A stretch of DNA of 42,888 nucleotides. Origin: a virus. Its lineage: Duplodnaviria > Heunggongvirae > Uroviricota > Caudoviricetes. The stretch lies in IMG/VR virus record IMGVR_UViG_2734482773_000006; one strand, given 5' to 3'. Both the position numbers and the translations under genes were made by a program. The notes below the pieces were generated by a model. The model was not told where the DNA came from and made no database searches. It was given only the letters and a program-made list of their open reading frames with translations. This document shows positions 2,903-39,754 of the stretch, one piece after another; the stretch's first letter is position 1; each line of letters begins with the position of its first letter.

Positions 2903-3502
2903 TCAGAATTTATAACCGACACCCACGATGAAACCGTCAGTGCGCCAGTCACCACTGCCGGAGCCTTCATAAGCAATATCAATGGCCACGGATTCGGTCG
3001 GGTTAAACTGCACGCCAGCCCCCCACGCCAGAGACGTGTTGCTGTGGCGACCGTCATCACTTCCGGTCAGCACATCGTGCGTTTTCCCCTTGTTGTCAGT
3101 TACGCGAAGATAATCCCCGGAGAAAGTCGACACACGGCTGTAAGCTACACCCGCCATCGCATACGCGCTGAACCATTCATTCACGCGCACAGACGGCCCC
3201 GCCATTACGCTGAACCAGCGGTTACGAACGGAATCTTCATGCCAGCGGGTATCGCTGTAACGGGTCAGCTGGCGATTCTTGTCTCCTGCATAGCTGAATG
3301 ACGTCACCAGCCCCAGTGTGTCCGTAAACTCATAACGGTATTTCACGTTAATCCCGTTCAGATCATCACTGCCGGGGACGTTCGTCGAGGCATGAAGATA
3401 CCCCGCGCTCAGCGTGGACTGATGTTCAGACGCCCATGCAGGCGCACCGGATACGGCCAGACAAATGGCTGCGGACAAAATTGCTGCACAAACTTTACGC
3501 AT
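2903..3502 (-). CDS. lom: Outer membrane protein Lom (Ail/Lom family)
   Basis: 199-aa ORF with signal peptide, ends in aromatic residue (beta-barrel); position between J and stf as in lambda. Confidence 0.9.
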   Translation of the reverse strand: MRKVCAAILSAAICLAVSGAPAWASEHQSTLSAGYLHASTNVPGSDDLNGINVKYRYEFTDTLGLVTSFSYAGDKNRQLTRYSDTRWHEDSVRNRWFSVMAGPSVRVNEWFSAYAMAGVAYSRVSTFSGDYLRVTDNKGKTHDVLTGSDDGRHSNTSLAWGAGVQFNPTESVAIDIAYEGSGSGDWRTDGFIVGVGYKF

Positions 3503-22983: not shown

Positions 22984-23342
22984 ACATCCCGGTTTCTTCC
23001 ACCATCGCACCGGAAAAGCGACTATGAGGGTAACCCTGCGTCTGTCAGCACAGTAAAACCCGGTGTGCATCGTTTTTGATTATTCCCGCACACTCACGCA
23101 GAAGGAATTCCCCGTCGGGCTACGGTCATGGTTAATGCGGGAATACGGCGACGATACAGCGCAGCTAAAAGGGTAATGGACAGATAGAGCGGTTTATTTC
23201 ATTCCACAGGATTCTGAGTGCCCCCCTCCTCCAATAGGCTGAGCATCCACCTATATAGTTTTAATTTTCATCAATCCATTTAACTATCGTTTAATTGTTG
23301 TCACATAGGATTCTGCCGTTTTTAACAATGCAGGATAATAAG

Positions 23343-23636
23343 ATGAAAAAAATGTTGTTTTCTGCCGCTCTGGCAATGCTTATTACAGGATGTGCTCAAC
23401 AGACGTTTACTGTTGGAAACAAACCGACAGCAGTAACACCAAAGGAAACCATCACCCATCACTTCTTCGTTTCGGGAATTGGACAGGAGAAAACTGTTGA
23501 TGCAGCCAAAATTTGTGGCGGCGCAGAAAATGTTGTTAAAACAGAAACCCAGCAAACATTCGTAAATGGATTGCTCGGTTTTATTACTTTAGGCATTTAT
23601 ACTCCGCTGGAAGCGCGTGTGTATTGCTCACAATAA
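23343..23636 (+). CDS. bor: Bor lipoprotein (serum resistance-associated lysogenic conversion protein)
   Basis: ORF track 23295..23636; internal Met begins MKKMLFSAALAMLITGCAQQTF (lipobox LITGC); ends EARVYCSQ as lambda Bor; convergent with Rz as in lambda. Confidence 0.9.
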   Translation: MKKMLFSAALAMLITGCAQQTFTVGNKPTAVTPKETITHHFFVSGIGQEKTVDAAKICGGAENVVKTETQQTFVNGLLGFITLGIYTPLEARVYCSQ

Positions 23637-25427: not shown

Positions 25428-26525
25428 ATGAAAAAATTAACAGTGGCAATTTCTGCTGTAGCTGCATCAGTACTGATGGCGATGTCTGCTCAGGCAGCTG
25501 AAATTTATAATAAAGACAGTAACAAGCTGGATCTGTACGGAAAAGTTAATGCCAAGCACTACTTTTCCTCTAACGATGCAGATGATGGTGATACTACTTA
25601 TGTTCGTCTGGGCTTCAAAGGCGAAACCCAAATCAACGATCAGCTGACTGGTTTCGGTCAGTGGGAATATGAATTCAAAGGCAACCGCGCTGAATCTCAA
25701 GGTTCCTCCAAAGACAAAACCCGTCTTGCATTTGCAGGCCTGAAATTCGGTGACTACGGCTCAATCGATTACGGCCGTAACTACGGTGTAGCATACGACA
25801 TCGGTGCGTGGACTGACGTTCTGCCAGAATTCGGTGGCGATACCTGGACCCAAACAGATGTGTTCATGACTGGTCGCACCACTGGTGTTGCAACCTATCG
25901 TAACAACGACTTCTTTGGTCTGGTTGATGGTCTGAACTTTGCTGCTCAGTACCAAGGCAAAAACGATCGTAGCGATTTCGATAACTACACCGAAGGTAAC
26001 GGTGATGGCTTCGGTTTCTCTGCTACCTATGAATACGAAGGGTTCGGTATCGGTGCAACTTATGCGAAATCTGATCGTACCGACACTCAAGTTAATGCAG
26101 GGAAAGTTCTTCCTGAAGTATTTGCTTCCGGTAAAAATGCAGAAGTTTGGGCCGCAGGTCTGAAATATGACGCTAACAACATTTACCTGGCCACTACCTA
26201 TTCTGAAACCCAGAATATGACTGTATTTGCTGATCACTTCGTTGCTAATAAAGCTCAAAACTTCGAAGCTGTTGCACAATATCAGTTCGATTTCGGTCTG
26301 CGTCCGTCCGTTGCTTACCTGCAATCTAAAGGTAAGGATCTTGGAGTATGGGGCGATCAGGACTTAGTCAAATATGTTGATGTAGGTGCAACCTATTACT
26401 TCAACAAAAATATGTCTACTTTCGTTGATTACAAAATCAACCTGCTTGACAAAAATGACTTCACTAAAGCACTCGGTGTAAGCACTGATGACATCGTTGC
26501 TGTAGGTCTGGTTTACCAGTTCTAA
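25428..26525 (+). CDS. nmpC: Outer membrane general porin, NmpC/Lc (OmpC/OmpF family), intact
   Basis: 365-aa ORF with signal peptide [23 protein letters not shown] and C-terminal VGLVYQF; matches DLP12 NmpC / phage PA-2 Lc as recalled; lies between Q and S on the opposite strand. Confidence 0.9.
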
Positions 26526-28133: not shown

Positions 28134-28588
28134 TACGCCTCCTGCTTGTCGCGCAGCAGCTGGAACTCGCAGCTCTGCGGAATAGTCAGGTGGCAGCCAA
28201 TATTCATCGCCCAGGCTTCAACCTTACACAGGAAGACATACATCTCTCCGGTATCAAGATTGGAGGTATGGCGTAACGACTGGATAGTAGTGATTTCGCC
28301 GGTTACGACATCAACCAGGTCCTTGGTTTCATAACCGAGGTATGTGTGTTTGAGAGCATCTTTTACCCATGCTGCGGTAGCGAACGATTTCCCCCTGCTG
28401 ATGAGGTATTCACTGATTTCGCTGTACCACATGTGGCTGAGTGCATTCTGGGAAAGACTGCGTTTCTCACGCCACGGTTTAAGCACCATGCGAAAGCATT
28501 TTCCGTCCTCCAGATAAGGCTGGATCTGCTGGCCGATAGCGGTGAAGTTGCCGCGATGTAATTTGATGCCGTCTTGTGGGAGGTTCAC
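28133..28588 (-). CDS. ybcN: YbcN-like protein (DLP12 YbcN family, nin region)
   Basis: 151 aa, begins [35 protein letters not shown]; matches DLP12 YbcN as recalled. Confidence 0.8.
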
Positions 28589-28813
28589 GCTTCACCTCCG
28601 CAGAGGTCAAACGTTGGATGCAAAAAAACGCAGGTGCATTTCTGCATCTGTGAATGGAGAAGATAGGTTGGATTGTATGTGCGCATAAACGTCCCCGTTT
28701 AGCGCAGAAGTCACCGGAGTTGTTCAGGCTCCGGCTTATTAATATTGCCTACTTACAATTAATTTTTCAACTGTTAGAAACTTATAATTAGCTGTCTCTT
28801 TGTAACTATCAAT

Positions 28814-30709
28814 TTAATTATTTTTCTTTAACTTGAAATTTCTTCCCATTGCTAGTGTTCTTCGAAGATTCGAATCATAAGCTGGTTGATAATATCTATC
28901 ATAAAAATCCTTAATTGTCTGATGGTAAGTATCCAGCATCAAACCATAAAACCCCCTAACCTTAAGATAATCCACCAAGGGAAATAAATAATCATCAGTC
29001 TGAACATCAGTATCAATATTATTTTTTTGTTTTTTAACTTCAAATTTGTATAAGTTTAACTCACCCTTATCCATCGTGCATGAAAAAAGGTCGTCAAAAA
29101 TCAAATCAATTTCTGTCATAGGAACTCGTTCTTTTCCAGACATTATAGGTAGAATATCAATACCTAAGAGCGAACCTAATACAAAGTCGTAATGAAGCGA
29201 AATCACTGAGTCATTCGATGTCGAGTTGCCTTTGATAAATACTCTACTTAGTGCCGAGTCAAAAACATTCTCAACTCTCTCTCTCGTCATGTTTGCGACA
29301 TCTACAACTCCCATATCACGAGAAGCTTTTATTGTGATTTCATCTATAAATGCTTTGGAATCTAGTGAATGTAAAAACAACATGAAGTTATCTAACTGTT
29401 CAGAGCATTTAATAGCCACCATAAGATTTTCGTATATATCTTTTTTATACTCAATCGGTAAATTTGCTACCGCAAAAGCAGCATAAAATTCTTGCACTGA
29501 TTTATGCAGAAAAACATACCTATTATTTCCCTCAGGTTGGATAAGGCAAGTTATCTCAATAAGATCATCTATAAAGTTTGATGCATCTTCTTTAAGATAA
29601 CCTTCTGTTTCAATAGCATCTTCAGCATATCTAAGCAACTCCTCTCCCCAAAACTCAAATTTCTCCTCAATCAGTGCGTTATAGCAAATAGCTGAAAAAC
29701 ACAATTTAGCTTTTTCACCAATAATGTTTGATTTTTTCTCGCGCGTATATACTTTTATTTTATCATGCCTTGCATATAAGGTGTCAAAGAGGCTTCGATA
29801 AAACTCTATTATATTATTTGGAATATCATTCATATAAGGATAACAATAATACAAAAGAGTAACTAAAATTGGATTGCAAATAGTTCCCTCAAGTTCTTCT
29901 TTATCACATAGTAAATCCGCCAAGACTTTAAACGAGGCATCACTACTTGAGAATCTGTCATTTTTCGATAAAGAATGAAGAATACAAATCTTATCAGAAA
30001 TATTTAGCTTATCTATAAAAATATTATACACATCAGTAGTATAACATATATCTGTATTTGGTCTCGTTGTTGCGATAATTGGTGTGTTAAAATGATAATG
30101 AATGTTTTTTATTTCATTCATCATCATAGTTCGCTCTTCATGTTTAACCTCATCAAATCCATCCAACATTAAAACGACTCTTTGGGATTGCAGTAATATT
30201 TTCAAGCTATCCTCTGAACACCCCACACCAAATGAATTAAGAATGTCTGCCAGATAAGCAATAATATTTGCATTCTTCACCCTTCTTAATTCAATAAAAA
30301 AAGGCATCCGTTCTGATTTTTTTATTTCCTCGCTAAACAACTTGCGTAAAATAGTACTTTTCCCTTGCCCCGCTATACCGACTATATTTACAATACCATG
30401 AAATGGTAAAGTGACCCCATCTTTTATAACGACCTTGTCTTTATTAGATGCCACCTCAACAGTTAACGGATAATAAATATCATCTAAAAAAATATCATAA
30501 TCAGCGTTGTGCAAAGTTCTCATTTTCAGAGATGGTAGCACATGCTTTCTTAAATAATTTTCTCTTCCGAGGGGATCATTTAATTGTTCGAGTATAACCT
30601 TGCCTTCATCTAGGTCCCTAGCCCAAGGTTTAGAGAGCAATACTTCTGTTATTTTTTCCGCAGCTTTTCCTACTGTGCTATTAATAATAGTCGCAAGAAA
30701 CTCATCCAT
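28814..30709 (-). CDS. NACHT/STAND-family P-loop NTPase (bacterial NLR-like), candidate single-gene anti-phage defence protein
   Basis: ORF track 28814..30766 (650 aa); likely start at internal Met (30709) preceded by GGTGA; Walker A GIAGQGKST (ORF aa 130-138), Walker B VVLMLDGFDE (197-206), TTRP (233-236); visibly AT-rich gene with AT-rich non-coding flanks. Confidence 0.7.
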   Translation of the reverse strand: MDEFLATIINSTVGKAAEKITEVLLSKPWARDLDEGKVILEQLNDPLGRENYLRKHVLPSLKMRTLHNADYDIFLDDIYYPLTVEVASNKDKVVIKDGVTLPFHGIVNIVGIAGQGKSTILRKLFSEEIKKSERMPFFIELRRVKNANIIAYLADILNSFGVGCSEDSLKILLQSQRVVLMLDGFDEVKHEERTMMMNEIKNIHYHFNTPIIATTRPNTDICYTTDVYNIFIDKLNISDKICILHSLSKNDRFSSSDASFKVLADLLCDKEELEGTICNPILVTLLYYCYPYMNDIPNNIIEFYRSLFDTLYARHDKIKVYTREKKSNIIGEKAKLCFSAICYNALIEEKFEFWGEELLRYAEDAIETEGYLKEDASNFIDDLIEITCLIQPEGNNRYVFLHKSVQEFYAAFAVANLPIEYKKDIYENLMVAIKCSEQLDNFMLFLHSLDSKAFIDEITIKASRDMGVVDVANMTRERVENVFDSALSRVFIKGNSTSNDSVISLHYDFVLGSLLGIDILPIMSGKERVPMTEIDLIFDDLFSCTMDKGELNLYKFEVKKQKNNIDTDVQTDDYLFPLVDYLKVRGFYGLMLDTYHQTIKDFYDRYYQPAYDSNLRRTLAMGRNFKLKKNN

Positions 30710-31097
30710 TTTTTCACCACATTCATTAACCAATACGTGGTGCATTCTTACAAGACTCAGTAACAATTGTCAATCATAGGTTTTCGCATGATTGCAAAAC
30801 GCCATAAACAATTGTAGCACCATAATTTTAAACACTATATAATATACAACCTTCCTACAAGCATTCAGTACATCGCTTAATCACAGGGCTTGAATATATA
30901 GTAAGGAATCGATATTAATCACCTCATCTACTTTAAACATCTTACACACCTATAATTTATAATAGTCAACACGAGGTCATCATATTAAACATGCAATTAC
31001 AAACATTCATTTTTATATAAATTTTCATGATTTAACCGTAGGGCGACGGTAATAAATTTCATATACAAGGATTTAAGCTCCCATACGTTTTCTATTA

Positions 31098-31277
31098 TTA
31101 AAAATAACATACCGTTCGCCAGACCTTACCATCAATGACTAAGATTCCTGCCCGCGCCATTTTAGCCGCAGCCTGATTTATGCTGGTTACGGTTGCGCCT
31201 GTTACCGCGGCAACGTCCTGTGCACAGAAGCTCTTATGCGTCCCCAGGTAATGAATAATTGCCTCTTTGCCCGTCAT
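31098..31277 (-). pseudogene. ren: Truncated ren gene (59 codons), broken at the junction with the AT-rich island
   Basis: Read by eye: MTGKEAIIHYLGTHKSFCAQDVAAVTGATVTSINQAAAKMARAGILVIDGKVWRTVCYF then stop; matches the lambda Ren N-terminus as recalled and ends ~37 codons early; ATG overlaps P stop. Confidence 0.6.
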
Positions 31278-32987: not shown

Positions 32988-33533
32988 TCATATTGCCCCC
33001 AGCATGGTGGTGACCATCGCCATCAGTGGACCAGCCAAATCCGGGTCCACACGAAACATCGACACAATGCCTTCACTCATCTCCTTCAGTTTCTGGTGGC
33101 GTGGTGCGTTGAGAATGACAGCCTGTTTTGCCTCACTGAGTTCCTTTTCCATTTCAGCCAGCCGAGCCATGTAGCTATCCTGCTCAACCAGGTGGCCGCG
33201 ATATTCCAGCGGTAGTACCGCCAGAATTGCCGGGGTCAGTTCACGCACGTTATTTCGGTATTTTTCAGAATCGAATTTGTTATCGAGGAAGCGGAACAGC
33301 TTCTGGCGTGCACGGCTGACATCATCAGGGAAATCGATGGTGCCGCCGCCCTGCTCCCGATACTCATTCACAATGAGTGCGGCAACAACATCCTGATTAT
33401 CTGCAGCCGACCAGGCGCGAACGGCATCACGGATTTTTTCGTGGCCTGGCGCCTGTTTTGTTTGAGAACGATTTATCACCGCAGTCGGGCTAAATCCGCT
33501 AGTCTGTTGGTATGTAAGTGGTTGCATAGTCAT
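32988..33533 (-). CDS. YdaT-like protein (CII functional analogue of Rac-type immunity regions)
   Basis: 181-aa ORF just downstream of the cro-like gene; motifs NEYREQGGG and LTPAILAVLPLEYR resemble Rac YdaT as recalled. Confidence 0.55.
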   Translation of the reverse strand: MTMQPLTYQQTSGFSPTAVINRSQTKQAPGHEKIRDAVRAWSAADNQDVVAALIVNEYREQGGGTIDFPDDVSRARQKLFRFLDNKFDSEKYRNNVRELTPAILAVLPLEYRGHLVEQDSYMARLAEMEKELSEAKQAVILNAPRHQKLKEMSEGIVSMFRVDPDLAGPLMAMVTTMLGAI

Positions 33534-33785: not shown

Positions 33786-33895
33786 TATCAATTCCTATTG
33801 GTATTGCAATGAATGAATAATAGCAATGCGTATTAATCCAAGCAATAGCAAAACGTGTTTTGACCATCAATACGCAAGCGTATAAATTAAAACTT
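33786..33895. promoter_or_regulatory. Right operator/promoter region (OR, PR, PRM-like) between divergent cro and cI
   Basis: 110-bp divergent intergenic region with repeated (T/A)TAGCAAT / TTGCAAT motifs, also found in the presumed OL region. Confidence 0.5.
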
Positions 33896-34588
33896 ATGAA
33901 AAAAGAAACTCTTGCTGATCGCTTAAACCTAGCGATGGAACAATCTGGAATGTCTCAAGGCGCTCTTGCAAAGGCGTCTGGCGTAGCTCAACCCACAATC
34001 TGGAGACTGACAAGCGGCAACGCTCGCGGCTCAACAAAAATTGTTGAAATAGCTAATGCATTGGGTGTTCGAACAGAATGGCTCTCATCAGGCATAGGCC
34101 CGATGAGAAATGACGGTCAACAATCAGGGAAGCCTGCTGTCAGCCATTCAAAATACTTCAAGATTGACGTTCTTGATATAGAAGTGAGTGCCGGGCCGGG
34201 AGTCATCAACCGTGAGTTTGTAGAAGTTCTACGCTCGGTTGAGTACTCGTTTGACGATGCTCGTCACATGTTCGATGGTAGGAAGGCAGAAAATATCCGC
34301 ATCATTAACGTACGCGGTGACAGCATGTCAGGAACGATCGAACCAGGTGATCTGCTGTTCGTTGATATCACGGTTAAATCTTTCGACGGTGATGGTATCT
34401 ATGCGTTTCTGTATGACGACACCGCCCATGTAAAGCGCCTGCAAATGATGAAGGATAAGCTACTGGTTATCTCTGATAACAAGAGCTACTCACCGTGGGA
34501 CCCGATCGAGAAAGACGAGATGAACCGGGTATTCATATTCGGTAAGGTTATTGGGAGCATGCCGCAGACGTACAGAAAACACGGATAA
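33896..34588 (+). CDS. cI: CI-type prophage repressor (N-terminal HTH, C-terminal S24 LexA-like peptidase domain)
   Basis: ORF track 33860..34588 (TTG); probable ATG at MKKETLADRLN (may be leaderless as lambda cI); HTH GMSQGALAKASGVAQPTIWRL; S24-like GDSM and K residues. Confidence 0.85.
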   Translation: MKKETLADRLNLAMEQSGMSQGALAKASGVAQPTIWRLTSGNARGSTKIVEIANALGVRTEWLSSGIGPMRNDGQQSGKPAVSHSKYFKIDVLDIEVSAGPGVINREFVEVLRSVEYSFDDARHMFDGRKAENIRIINVRGDSMSGTIEPGDLLFVDITVKSFDGDGIYAFLYDDTAHVKRLQMMKDKLLVISDNKSYSPWDPIEKDEMNRVFIFGKVIGSMPQTYRKHG

Positions 34589-34946: not shown

Positions 34947-35390
34947 ATGAAACACGATTATTACGAAGCTCCAAACCTAAATGATAAAATTGCAAAGGCG
35001 GCAAAATCATTTTGTTTGCACTCCAGTGCGTCTTCCCAGCTAGCAGGTATATCTGGAAAAAGATGGGACATGCTACAATCAAGTGGTAGCAGTGGGTCTG
35101 GGAGTGATAACATGCCTGAAAAAGTTGCAAAACTGGAGTCCGATGTTGCTCATATCAAACGAGACGTTGATGAACTTAAAACAGACGTTAAAGCTATCGA
35201 CAAAAATATGATAACTATTCTTGCACGTCTGGACTCTATAAAAGAATCCTTAACAAACAAGCCATCAAGTGATGCTGTCGATAGAAAGATTTCAGACGCA
35301 AAGCTTGCGGTATTGCTTGGTGTTCCAGCAATCATCGCTGCAGGAACAGGACTTTATAAGCTATCAATGTACTTTTTCTTTAGTGCTTAA
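34947..35390 (+). CDS. Hypothetical coiled-coil protein with C-terminal transmembrane anchor (rexB position); probable shorter 92-aa form from 35112
   Basis: ORF track 147 aa; internal ATG at 35112 has GGAG upstream; C-terminal hydrophobic helix AVLLGVPAIIAAGTGLYKLSMYFFF; heptad-like charged region. Confidence 0.45.
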   Translation: MKHDYYEAPNLNDKIAKAAKSFCLHSSASSQLAGISGKRWDMLQSSGSSGSGSDNMPEKVAKLESDVAHIKRDVDELKTDVKAIDKNMITILARLDSIKESLTNKPSSDAVDRKISDAKLAVLLGVPAIIAAGTGLYKLSMYFFFSA

Positions 35391-39151: not shown

Positions 39152-39754
39152 TCATTCAGTATCATCACGCGCGGTCTGTGCATATGTCACTACCGCACCT
39201 AATATATTAATTTTCTTTTCAACATAGATAATATTATCGTACTCATAATTGCCATACGGATAGCAAATGCGAATATTCTCATGTAGATCGGGGTCATCCA
39301 CCTCAGCTCCAGAACAACTTTTTGAACTACCGGAAGTATACCGATACGGTGCAACATAAGACGATGTCTCTCCAGGCAAAAAATAAGTTAGTGTCGTAAG
39401 GGGTATAATCAGAAAAAATCCTGCAAATATGCACATCCCTGCATAAACCTTAAGGTATGCTGACAGACTCTTCCAGCCTCTTTGTTTTACTATCCCCTTC
39501 TTAACCCAAAACAGAGATAACAGAAAAGCTATTCCCATGCTAAACAGAATGTAATAGTGGGATATACTCTGATTAAGAAACGTGACCCTGTAGATATCTG
39601 CCCGCCACCAGAAGAAAAGGAAAATAAAGATCAGCCCTGAAACTGTCATGCAAATCAAATAAGGATACGAATCTTTTTTCATGTTTAGCGCCCATAAAAT
39701 TTTTCCTGACCCGGACAAATTTACCATCCATTTTTTGCGCAGAAAATAGCTCAT
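39152..39754 (-). CDS. Hypothetical integral membrane protein (three predicted TM helices plus Cys-containing C-terminal domain), AT-rich moron
   Basis: 200-aa ORF on the opposite strand to neighbours; hydrophobic segments LICMTVSGLIFIFLFFWW, YYILFSMGIAFLLSLFWV, VYAGMCIFAGFFLIIPLTTLTYFL; start codon uncertain. Confidence 0.5.
   Translation of the reverse strand: MSYFLRKKWMVNLSGSGKILWALNMKKDSYPYLICMTVSGLIFIFLFFWWRADIYRVTFLNQSISHYYILFSMGIAFLLSLFWVKKGIVKQRGWKSLSAYLKVYAGMCIFAGFFLIIPLTTLTYFLPGETSSYVAPYRYTSGSSKSCSGAEVDDPDLHENIRICYPYGNYEYDNIIYVEKKINILGAVVTYAQTARDDTE

Follow-up and report, generated by a model that had tools for sequence, protein, structure and literature searches.

A NACHT gene in the ren-ninB cargo slot of a lambdoid prophage as candidate single-protein anti-phage sensor of bNACHT clade 14

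The window, i.e. the whole stretch of 42,888 nucleotides analysed here (IMG/VR record IMGVR_UViG_2734482773_000006), is a lambdoid prophage that adjoins ybhC. Its structural genes and its genes for lysis, regulation and integration make up a full set. It comprises tail fibre, lom, J, tape-measure, head, portal, terminase, bor/iss, lysis, porin and Q genes. These are followed by rusA, ninE, ninB, a gene for a NACHT protein, a truncated ren (ren’), then P and O, genes for a YdaT-domain protein, a Cro-like protein and an S24 repressor, bet/exo and, next to ybhC, the gene for a lambda-type integrase. The NACHT gene, which has the orientation of the early-right operon, is the subject of this study. 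It probably encodes a functional abortive-infection sensor that acts as a single protein, belongs to the family of bNACHT01, 02, 11 and 12, and is carried as accessory prophage cargo protecting the lysogen, and hence the prophage, against other phages. The gene and its parts are listed below. Residue numbers refer throughout to the protein of 631 amino acids (aa) counted from the ATG at 30709.

28814..30709, minus strand: bNACHT clade-14 gene, 631 aa plus stop codon, ATG at 30709
30527..30709, minus strand: N-terminal module, residues 1-61, four predicted helices, starts with MDEFLAT (from the AlphaFold2 (AF2) model and the alignment to bNACHT11)
29390..30526, minus strand: NACHT module, residues 62-440, with nucleotide-binding domain, helical domain and winged helix (from Pfam PF05729 and Foldseek)
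30353..30379, minus strand: Walker A motif (P-loop) GIAGQGKST, residues 111-119, with K117 (from the alignment of 78 sequences)
30149..30178, minus strand: Walker B motif VVLMLDGFDE, residues 178-187, with D183 and E187, of the hhhhDGhDE form
30059..30070, minus strand: TTRP, residues 214-217, with R216, about 30 residues after Walker B
28817..29389, minus strand: putative SNaCT-type sensor domain, residues 441-631, mixed alpha/beta, hypervariable

A preliminary description of the window had reported an open reading frame (ORF) on the minus strand at 28814..30766. This frame is real and spans 650 aa when counted from the first TTG in the ORF list. Almost certainly, however, the ATG at 30709 is the biological start and the TTG frame to 30766 an over-extension, since the Prokaryotic Genome Annotation Pipeline (PGAP) calls the ATG as start in nine complete E. 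coli genomes, M-[D/E] at the aligned position is the N-terminus of most full-length relatives, and GGTG is found 6 nt upstream. In 2000 composition-preserving shuffles the longest stop-free run had a mean of 81 and a maximum of 168 codons compared to the 650 observed; the ORF is thus not a chance product. The coding sequence has a GC content of 0.33, whereas the flanking phage genes show 0.49 and 0.51. Non-coding DNA isolates the gene on both sides: 225 bp separate it from the start of ninB and 388 bp from the stop codon of ren’, close to the ~220 and ~390 bp given before. No partner gene is present at the locus and the neighbour genes differ from locus to locus, so that the low GC content and the solitary position reported earlier are both borne out. 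RefSeq already names the product ‘NACHT domain-containing protein’.

The Pfam NACHT profile (PF05729) matches the protein with 43.9 bits at a curated cut-off of 26.7. It is the sole Pfam domain above its curated cut-off, and no Pfam match to a nuclease, protease, SIR2 or TIR effector domain was found in the protein. The three motifs follow each other in the order and spacing that had been claimed for them. Among the 78 aligned homologues G111, A113-T119 (including K117), D183, G184, D186, E187, R216 and P217 are invariant. K115, the equivalent of K117, is essential in bNACHT01 (Kibby et al., bioRxiv 10.1101/2022.07.19.500537). R216 is aligned by BLASTP with R214 of bNACHT11, which contacts ATP (Robbins et al., bioRxiv 10.1101/2024.12.17.629029).

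The structure was predicted using AF2 based on the 78-sequence alignment (mean predicted local distance difference test (pLDDT) 89.9, predicted template modelling score (pTM) 0.88). From N- to C-terminus the model shows four helices, an NTPase core of alpha/beta type, the helical and winged-helix domains, which reach to residue ~440, and a C-terminal domain of mixed alpha/beta structure. A Foldseek search of the PDB returned NLRC4 as top match (4kxf, E 2.7e-12) followed by NOD2 (5irm), NAIP/NLRC4 (8fvu) and NLRP3. A sequence search of the PDB, using a copy without the cryo-electron microscopy (cryo-EM) entry of bNACHT11, gave no match, and the NCBIfam profiles gave nothing but P-loop noise. 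According to the model, the motifs sit in a genuine NACHT fold of the type found in nucleotide-binding leucine-rich repeat proteins (NLRs). The preliminary description had regarded the ~400 residues after the P-loop as a plausible sensor region. This is correct in part: about 230 of them belong to the helical and winged-helix sub-domains of NACHT in the model, and only about 190 (441-631) constitute the sensor domain.

Judged by its sequence, the gene falls into bNACHT clade 14 and does not represent a new kind of system. The term bNACHT was coined by Kibby et al. (bioRxiv 10.1101/2022.07.19.500537) for a group of bacterial NLR-related proteins. Clade 14, the most abundant and best-studied of the bNACHT clades, is defined by bNACHT01; it combines a NACHT module with a short, fast-diversifying SNaCT domain and has neither a fused enzymatic effector nor a partner in an operon. 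In E. coli the tested homologues of this clade work when expressed from the upstream region native to each, with the Walker A lysine as an essential residue (same reference). We placed the protein of the window (the query) by pairwise identity to validated bNACHTs and by overlapping homologue lists rather than by a tree. Table S2 of Kibby et al. holds the first ~400 residues of the tested proteins and the following identities cover that stretch.

bNACHT11: 41% identity to the query (BLASTP E 2e-100), defends against T2, T4 and T6
bNACHT02: 37% identity, defends against MS2 and T7
bNACHT01: 36-38% identity, defends against T4, T5 and T6
bNACHT12: 34-35% identity, defends against T4, T6 and MS2
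bNACHT04 and bNACHT22, architecturally similar but of another clade: 24-25% identity, no phage listed in Table S2

A protein of 639 aa that is 99% identical to bNACHT11 over ~400 residues (P0150) served as its full-length stand-in. It shares 39% identity with the query over residues 1 to 452, and the homologue lists of the query and of bNACHT11 overlap. A database search returned 216 relatives, nearly all of them 600-650 aa long, from Gammaproteobacteria and with the same layout. In an exhaustive search of 1.84 billion cluster representatives, 470 were found at E ≤1e-30 and 2940 at E ≤1e-10. Taken together, the Pfam match, the invariant catalytic residues, the predicted NLR fold and 34-41% identity to four validated bNACHTs sustain the earlier proposal of a prophage-borne single-gene NACHT/STAND candidate for anti-phage defence.

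The PADLOC v2.0.0 models gave no meaningful match for the query. We dropped this result as evidence against a known defence family because the bNACHT11 stand-in is left unmatched as well; PADLOC v2.0.0 has no clade-14 bNACHT models.

A different identity for the protein would be an Avs/AVAST-type STAND sensor that reads a terminase- or portal-like phage protein by its fold. A STAND NTPase in a phage-defence context would fit such a sensor, and Foldseek finds a weak match to Avs4 (8dgf, E 1.9e-5). However, the template modelling (TM) score to Avs4 is only 0.21 versus 0.50 to NLRC4, and no significant PADLOC match was obtained with the Avs models included, a search that misses the bNACHT11 stand-in too. 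The query sensor is a non-repeat domain of 190 residues and not a large TPR-like array, the enzymatic effectors named above are missing, and sequence identity groups the query with bNACHT01, 02, 11 and 12. We thus regard an Avs-type sensor as extremely improbable.

Points that weigh against a working clade-14 sensor concern its C-terminal domain, the published record, the N-terminus and the expression signals, and they are considered in this and the two following parts. The query does not match the Pfam SNaCT1 model (PF22710) at E up to 1. Moreover, its SNaCT cannot be aligned to that of bNACHT11: BLASTP finds nothing beyond residue ~452 and hhalign yields a probability of 0.2%. Literature searches returned no report on this protein or its subfamily. 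Regarding SNaCT1, 27 of the 78 aligned family members match the model, and the bNACHT11 cluster is likewise without a precomputed match. The Pfam SNaCT1 model hence does not span the whole of clade 14. In a direct profile comparison using hhalign, the C-terminus of the query subfamily aligned with the SNaCT1-positive relatives over 173 columns (96.3% probability, E 1.7e-9), and the C-terminus of the bNACHT11 group did so with 87% probability. On these profile comparisons the C-terminal domain nevertheless is a SNaCT.

The domain comprises 191 aa, is non-repetitive and ends in a basic, less ordered tail (...GRNFKLKKNN) whose pLDDT averages 66 over residues 621-630 and drops to 37 at residue 631. 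Its mean Shannon entropy per column is 2.80 bits versus 1.57 bits in the NACHT module. The closest relatives are 71-76% identical in NACHT and 39-49% in SNaCT. As the two SNaCT domains are unalignable, the published interface residues of bNACHT11 (S518, I519, F522, I549, I553) and its docking tail are unmappable on the query. With a SNaCT diverged to this extent the trigger cannot be inferred, and the five known activators of bNACHT11, namely T2 gp6, gp9, gp46 and gp57 and T4 30.5 (bioRxiv 10.1101/2024.12.17.629029), cannot be assumed to act here.

The N-terminal module consists of four helices in the AF2 model (residues 3-10, 12-26, 31-44 and 46-61). In bNACHT11 an N-terminal extension of ~45 residues with the start MDPIT is required for killing (bioRxiv 10.1101/2024.12.17.629029). 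This region has been related to the MEPIS motif known from membrane-targeting helical domains of the Bell/HeLo type, and anti-phage NLRs, bNACHT02 and bNACHT11 among them, carry a MEPIS-type module at the N-terminus (Ibarlosa et al., bioRxiv 10.1101/2024.11.07.622273). The N-terminus of bNACHT11 (as P0150) aligns with the query from residue 1. Based on this alignment, residues 1-61 are likely the cell-killing effector, equivalent to the MDPIT/MEPIS module. The preliminary description had seen no recognisable N-terminal effector and regarded the mechanism as unknown. This is outdated, since the short N-terminal module is the effector of bNACHT11 and acts by plasmolysis (bioRxiv 10.1101/2024.12.17.629029).

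The start MDEFLAT keeps D2, while Pro3 is replaced by Glu, and the exchange P3A abolishes defence by bNACHT11 (bioRxiv 10.1101/2024.12.17.629029). One may therefore ask whether the gene is a decaying or non-functional remnant, be it a pseudogene or a protein that lost its effector through the change of Pro3 to Glu; the insertion also truncated the neighbour ren, which indicates a rearranged locus. MDE[F/V/I] is however found throughout the query subfamily, with MDPLL, MEPIS or MDPIT in most other branches, and the functional bNACHT01 (MDII) and bNACHT12 (MDLV) lack Pro3 as well (Kibby et al. Table S2). For these two reasons we provisionally treat MDEF as a tolerated variant. Compared to an 85%-identical relative (P0002), the ratio of nonsynonymous to synonymous substitution rates (dN/dS) is 0.11 overall, with 0.07 in the N-terminal module, 0.11 in NACHT and 0.12 in SNaCT, i.e. 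lowest in the very module in question. No internal stop codon interrupts the frame in any of the near-identical gene copies examined, all catalytic residues are invariant, and the exact protein sequence occurs on about 391 contigs of E. coli and Salmonella. The low dN/dS together with the uninterrupted frame argues for a functional gene under strong purifying selection and against a pseudogene, the possibility that the preliminary description had itself raised. On this selection analysis we reject the pseudogene, and a remnant of either kind is very unlikely.

Two candidate expression signals were found around the gene.

30744..30773, minus strand: candidate sigma-70 promoter, TTGACA, 18-nt spacer and TG-extended AAGAAT, 10 of 12 consensus matches, 35 nt before the ATG (consensus scan)
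28626..28649, minus strand: terminator-like hairpin with T-run between the NACHT gene and ninB, in a conserved orf33-like linker (pattern scan)

The hairpin at 28626-28649 could end a transcript from the gene’s own promoter. It is contained in a small orf33-like frame (28585-28686, minus strand) that overlaps the ninB start and may be a gene, a regulatory leader or a terminator; annotations of this frame exist in phage 82 and, from PGAP, in strain DAM. A homologue of lambda tR2 was considered for this hairpin and not adopted, as the stretch is annotated in the record of phage 82 with orf33 and a putative regulator site.

The promoter is a consensus pattern match only; the scan of the region returned 19 sigma-70-like sites compared to 12.2 expected. 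In an alignment of the upstream regions of five subfamily loci just the ribosome binding site and the start were conserved, the promoter was not. DNA of 32% GC may moreover be silenced by H-NS in E. coli, and the GC content of 0.32 of the inserted cassette is typical of H-NS-bound DNA. The gene also lies inside, and on the same strand as, the early-right unit P-ren’-ninB-Q. It could accordingly be intact and yet effectively silent in the lysogen, through xenogeneic silencing or through expression with the early-right unit only, and act, if at all, in the lytic cycle of its carrier. Possible roles would then be the exclusion of co-infecting phages or an adjustment of the fate of the induced cell, not standing immunity. 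We consider such silence unlikely, although less so than a remnant: in E. coli every tested homologue works from its native upstream region, the cassette is always accompanied by its own 388-bp upstream region at 99-100% identity, and strong purifying selection indicates that the gene is used somewhere. A sensor that works in the lysogen thus remains our preferred reading.

The gene resides in an AT-rich insertion whose limits were derived from alignment to phage PhiR70_1, which carries different cargo upstream.

28735..31104, no strand assigned: AT-rich cargo cassette, 2.37 kb, GC 0.32, comprising upstream region, one gene and a 79-bp tail (PhiR70_1 alignments and BLAST limits)
31098..31277, minus strand: truncated ren, product of 59 aa, homology to the 100-aa Ren ends after codon ~56-58
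28714..28734, no strand assigned: hairpin CCGGAGCCTGAACAACTCCGG, exact downstream junction of the cargo slot

The upstream breakpoint is located at ~31105 and the downstream one at 28734/28735, directly at the hairpin, which is annotated as ‘possible regulator-binding site’ in the phage 82 record X92588. The product of the truncated ren is identical to PhiR70_1 Ren at 56 of 58 positions (BLASTP), and its PGAP annotation reads ‘protein ren, incomplete, missing C-terminus’. DLP12-type phages have an intact ren and carry emrE-ybcK-ybcL-ybcM in this interval (PhiR70_1, locus L003 1193-5713). By this comparison the interval between ren and ninB serves lambdoid phages as a slot for variable cargo. 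No convincing direct or inverted repeats were found at the ends of the cassette, and a literature search found no described ren-ninB defence hotspot.

The cassette occurs in 9 of 5426 complete E. coli genomes, in none of the deposited phage genomes in INPHARED and, at ~100%, in seven viral contigs of IMG/VR, where two more contigs carry relatives at 62-64%. In 9 other loci it is 99-100% identical, while the adjoining ren’, P and ninB show 91-100%, and the breakpoint in ren is the same in all copies. The near-identical cassette, the more diverged flanks and the constant breakpoint suggest a single recent acquisition, which then spread by recombination among diverged lambdoid prophages. The cassette is rare but mobile, and the horizontal acquisition that had been proposed from its AT-richness agrees with an AT-rich cassette in a lambdoid prophage. 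Most copies hold ~1.5 kb of extra cargo between cassette and ninB (a protein with a P22AR C-terminal domain and a hypothetical protein); the short form without it is present in the window and in strains DAM and ANT.

Relatives with 62-66% identity (P0004, P0005, P0007) occupy the equivalent slot in other lambdoid prophages, after the replication module and before rusA/ylcG/Q. Relatives with ~40% identity are located on plasmid- or ICE-like elements (ICE, integrative and conjugative element). In one of these prophages (locus L006, 1841-8905) the 62%-identical P0007 adjoins a KAP-family NTPase, a Ser/Thr protein kinase, an FRG-domain protein and an integrase fragment. The group resembles a small defence islet of several genes, again placed in the post-replication slot.

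Other accessory genes are found elsewhere in the window. An ORF of 147 aa (34947-35390, plus strand) downstream of the S24/HTH cI-like repressor (33860-34588) lies at the position of lambda rexA/rexB. Its phrog matches are phrog_3556, of unknown function, and a weak one to a ‘hemolysin’ phrog; neither Pfam nor PADLOC matched it. It is a candidate exclusion or moron gene expressed in the lysogen. Next to the integrase, a second AT-rich patch (GC 0.38) contains an ORF of 200 aa (39152-39754, minus strand), of which only the C-terminal 88 residues match phrog_1416 (unknown function); it has no Pfam or PADLOC match either and is likely an accessory gene. Lambdoid morons are represented by an OmpC/NmpC-type porin in a patch of 39-41% GC (25428-26525, plus strand), the serum-resistance lipoprotein Bor/Iss (23295-23636, plus strand) and the outer-membrane protein Lom/Ail (2903-3502, minus strand). 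Finally, a protein with a YdaT toxin domain (PF06254, E 2.4e-29; 32988-33533, minus strand) is encoded between the cro-like and O-like genes, i.e. at the position of lambda cII, an arrangement that recurs in L005 and L007.

For bNACHT11 the sequence of events is described. Its SNaCT binds at least 5 unrelated small phage proteins via one surface, using beta-augmentation as well as hydrophobic contacts, a heptameric wheel is formed that needs binding and ATP but not ATP hydrolysis, and cell death occurs by plasmolysis depending on the osmolarity of the medium (bioRxiv 10.1101/2024.12.17.629029). In the protein of the window the parts are present and intact, and each mechanistic step that follows is transferred by homology. 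The gene would be transcribed in the lysogen from its own promoter, given the sigma-70-like site at 30773-30744. Given its position between P/ren’ and ninB in the same orientation, transcripts of the early-right operon would include the gene as well during lytic growth. The resting state would be an auto-inhibited monomer, the model being closest to closed NLRC4. Upon infection one or more phage proteins would bind SNaCT (residues 441-631), and ATP bound at K117, D183/E187 and R216, all of them invariant, would drive assembly of a wheel-like oligomer as in bNACHT11. The clustered four-helix modules (1-61) would then disturb the inner membrane and the osmotic balance, leading to plasmolysis, and the cell would die before phage progeny is released, again by analogy to bNACHT11.

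Since the query seemingly shares switch and effector with bNACHT11 and has a sensor that is unalignable to it, its trigger would test how general multi-ligand sensing by beta-augmentation is. The location raises the question how a phage-encoded suicide sensor inside its own early operon avoids firing on its carrier. It is conceivable, though we hold this only tentatively, that the SNaCT of the subfamily (≥60% identity) evolved ligands unlike those of bNACHT11, e.g. proteins of competing temperate or lambdoid phages, and is blind to those of the carrier prophage. If true, this would provide a natural system in which to study how an NLR carried by a phage distinguishes self phage from non-self phage, and the start MDEF without Pro would be established as a working variant of the plasmolysis effector. 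In addition, as PADLOC v2.0.0 and Pfam SNaCT1 miss this branch, clade-14 bNACHT genes will systematically be under-called as defence genes by these two resources.

Among known systems bNACHT11 of Klebsiella pneumoniae (WP_114260439.1) is the closest counterpart, with 39-41% identity from residue 1 to ~452. Both proteins are of the same length class (631 and 639 aa) and combine a helical N-terminal module, a NACHT module and a short non-repeat C-terminal domain with a flexible tail. Both are encoded by a single gene without partner. The Walker A lysine and the ATP-contacting arginine are K117 and R216 in the query and K115 and R214 in bNACHT11, and NLRC4 and NAIP are the top structural neighbours of the query model as well as of the bNACHT11 cryo-EM structure. 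They differ in the last ~180 residues (the sensor), which neither BLASTP nor profile comparison aligns, in the N-terminus (MDEFL versus MDPIT) and in the location of the query in a prophage cargo slot.

bNACHT01 (WP_015632533.1) and bNACHT12 (WP_021519735.1), founding members of clade 14 listed as NACHT+SNaCT in Table S1 of Kibby et al., are 34-38% identical to the query over the N-terminal and NACHT regions and likewise combine a conserved NACHT with a hypervariable SNaCT. Like the query they lack Pro3, yet they defend against T4, T5, T6 and MS2. With 609 and 612 aa they are shorter than the query, they differ from it in trigger and SNaCT sequence, and bNACHT01 is found beside a CBASS (cyclic oligonucleotide-based antiphage signalling) system in the chromosome and not in a prophage.

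The NACHT fold of the mammalian proteins NLRC4, NOD2, NAIP and NLRP3 matches the query model (Foldseek E 1e-12 to 1e-9, TM 0.4-0.5 relative to the query) and the hhhhDGhDE form of Walker B is common to both. However, identity is only 14-17%, and the query is one third smaller with neither a leucine-rich repeat sensor nor a CARD or PYD domain. Bell, ‘Babybell’ and HeLo-type modules with the MEPIS motif share with the query a short helical N-terminus starting with M-[D/E] (Ibarlosa et al., bioRxiv 10.1101/2024.11.07.622273). MDEFLAT lacks the Pro of MEPIS, and the likeness to these modules is given by the start of the sequence and the predicted helices.

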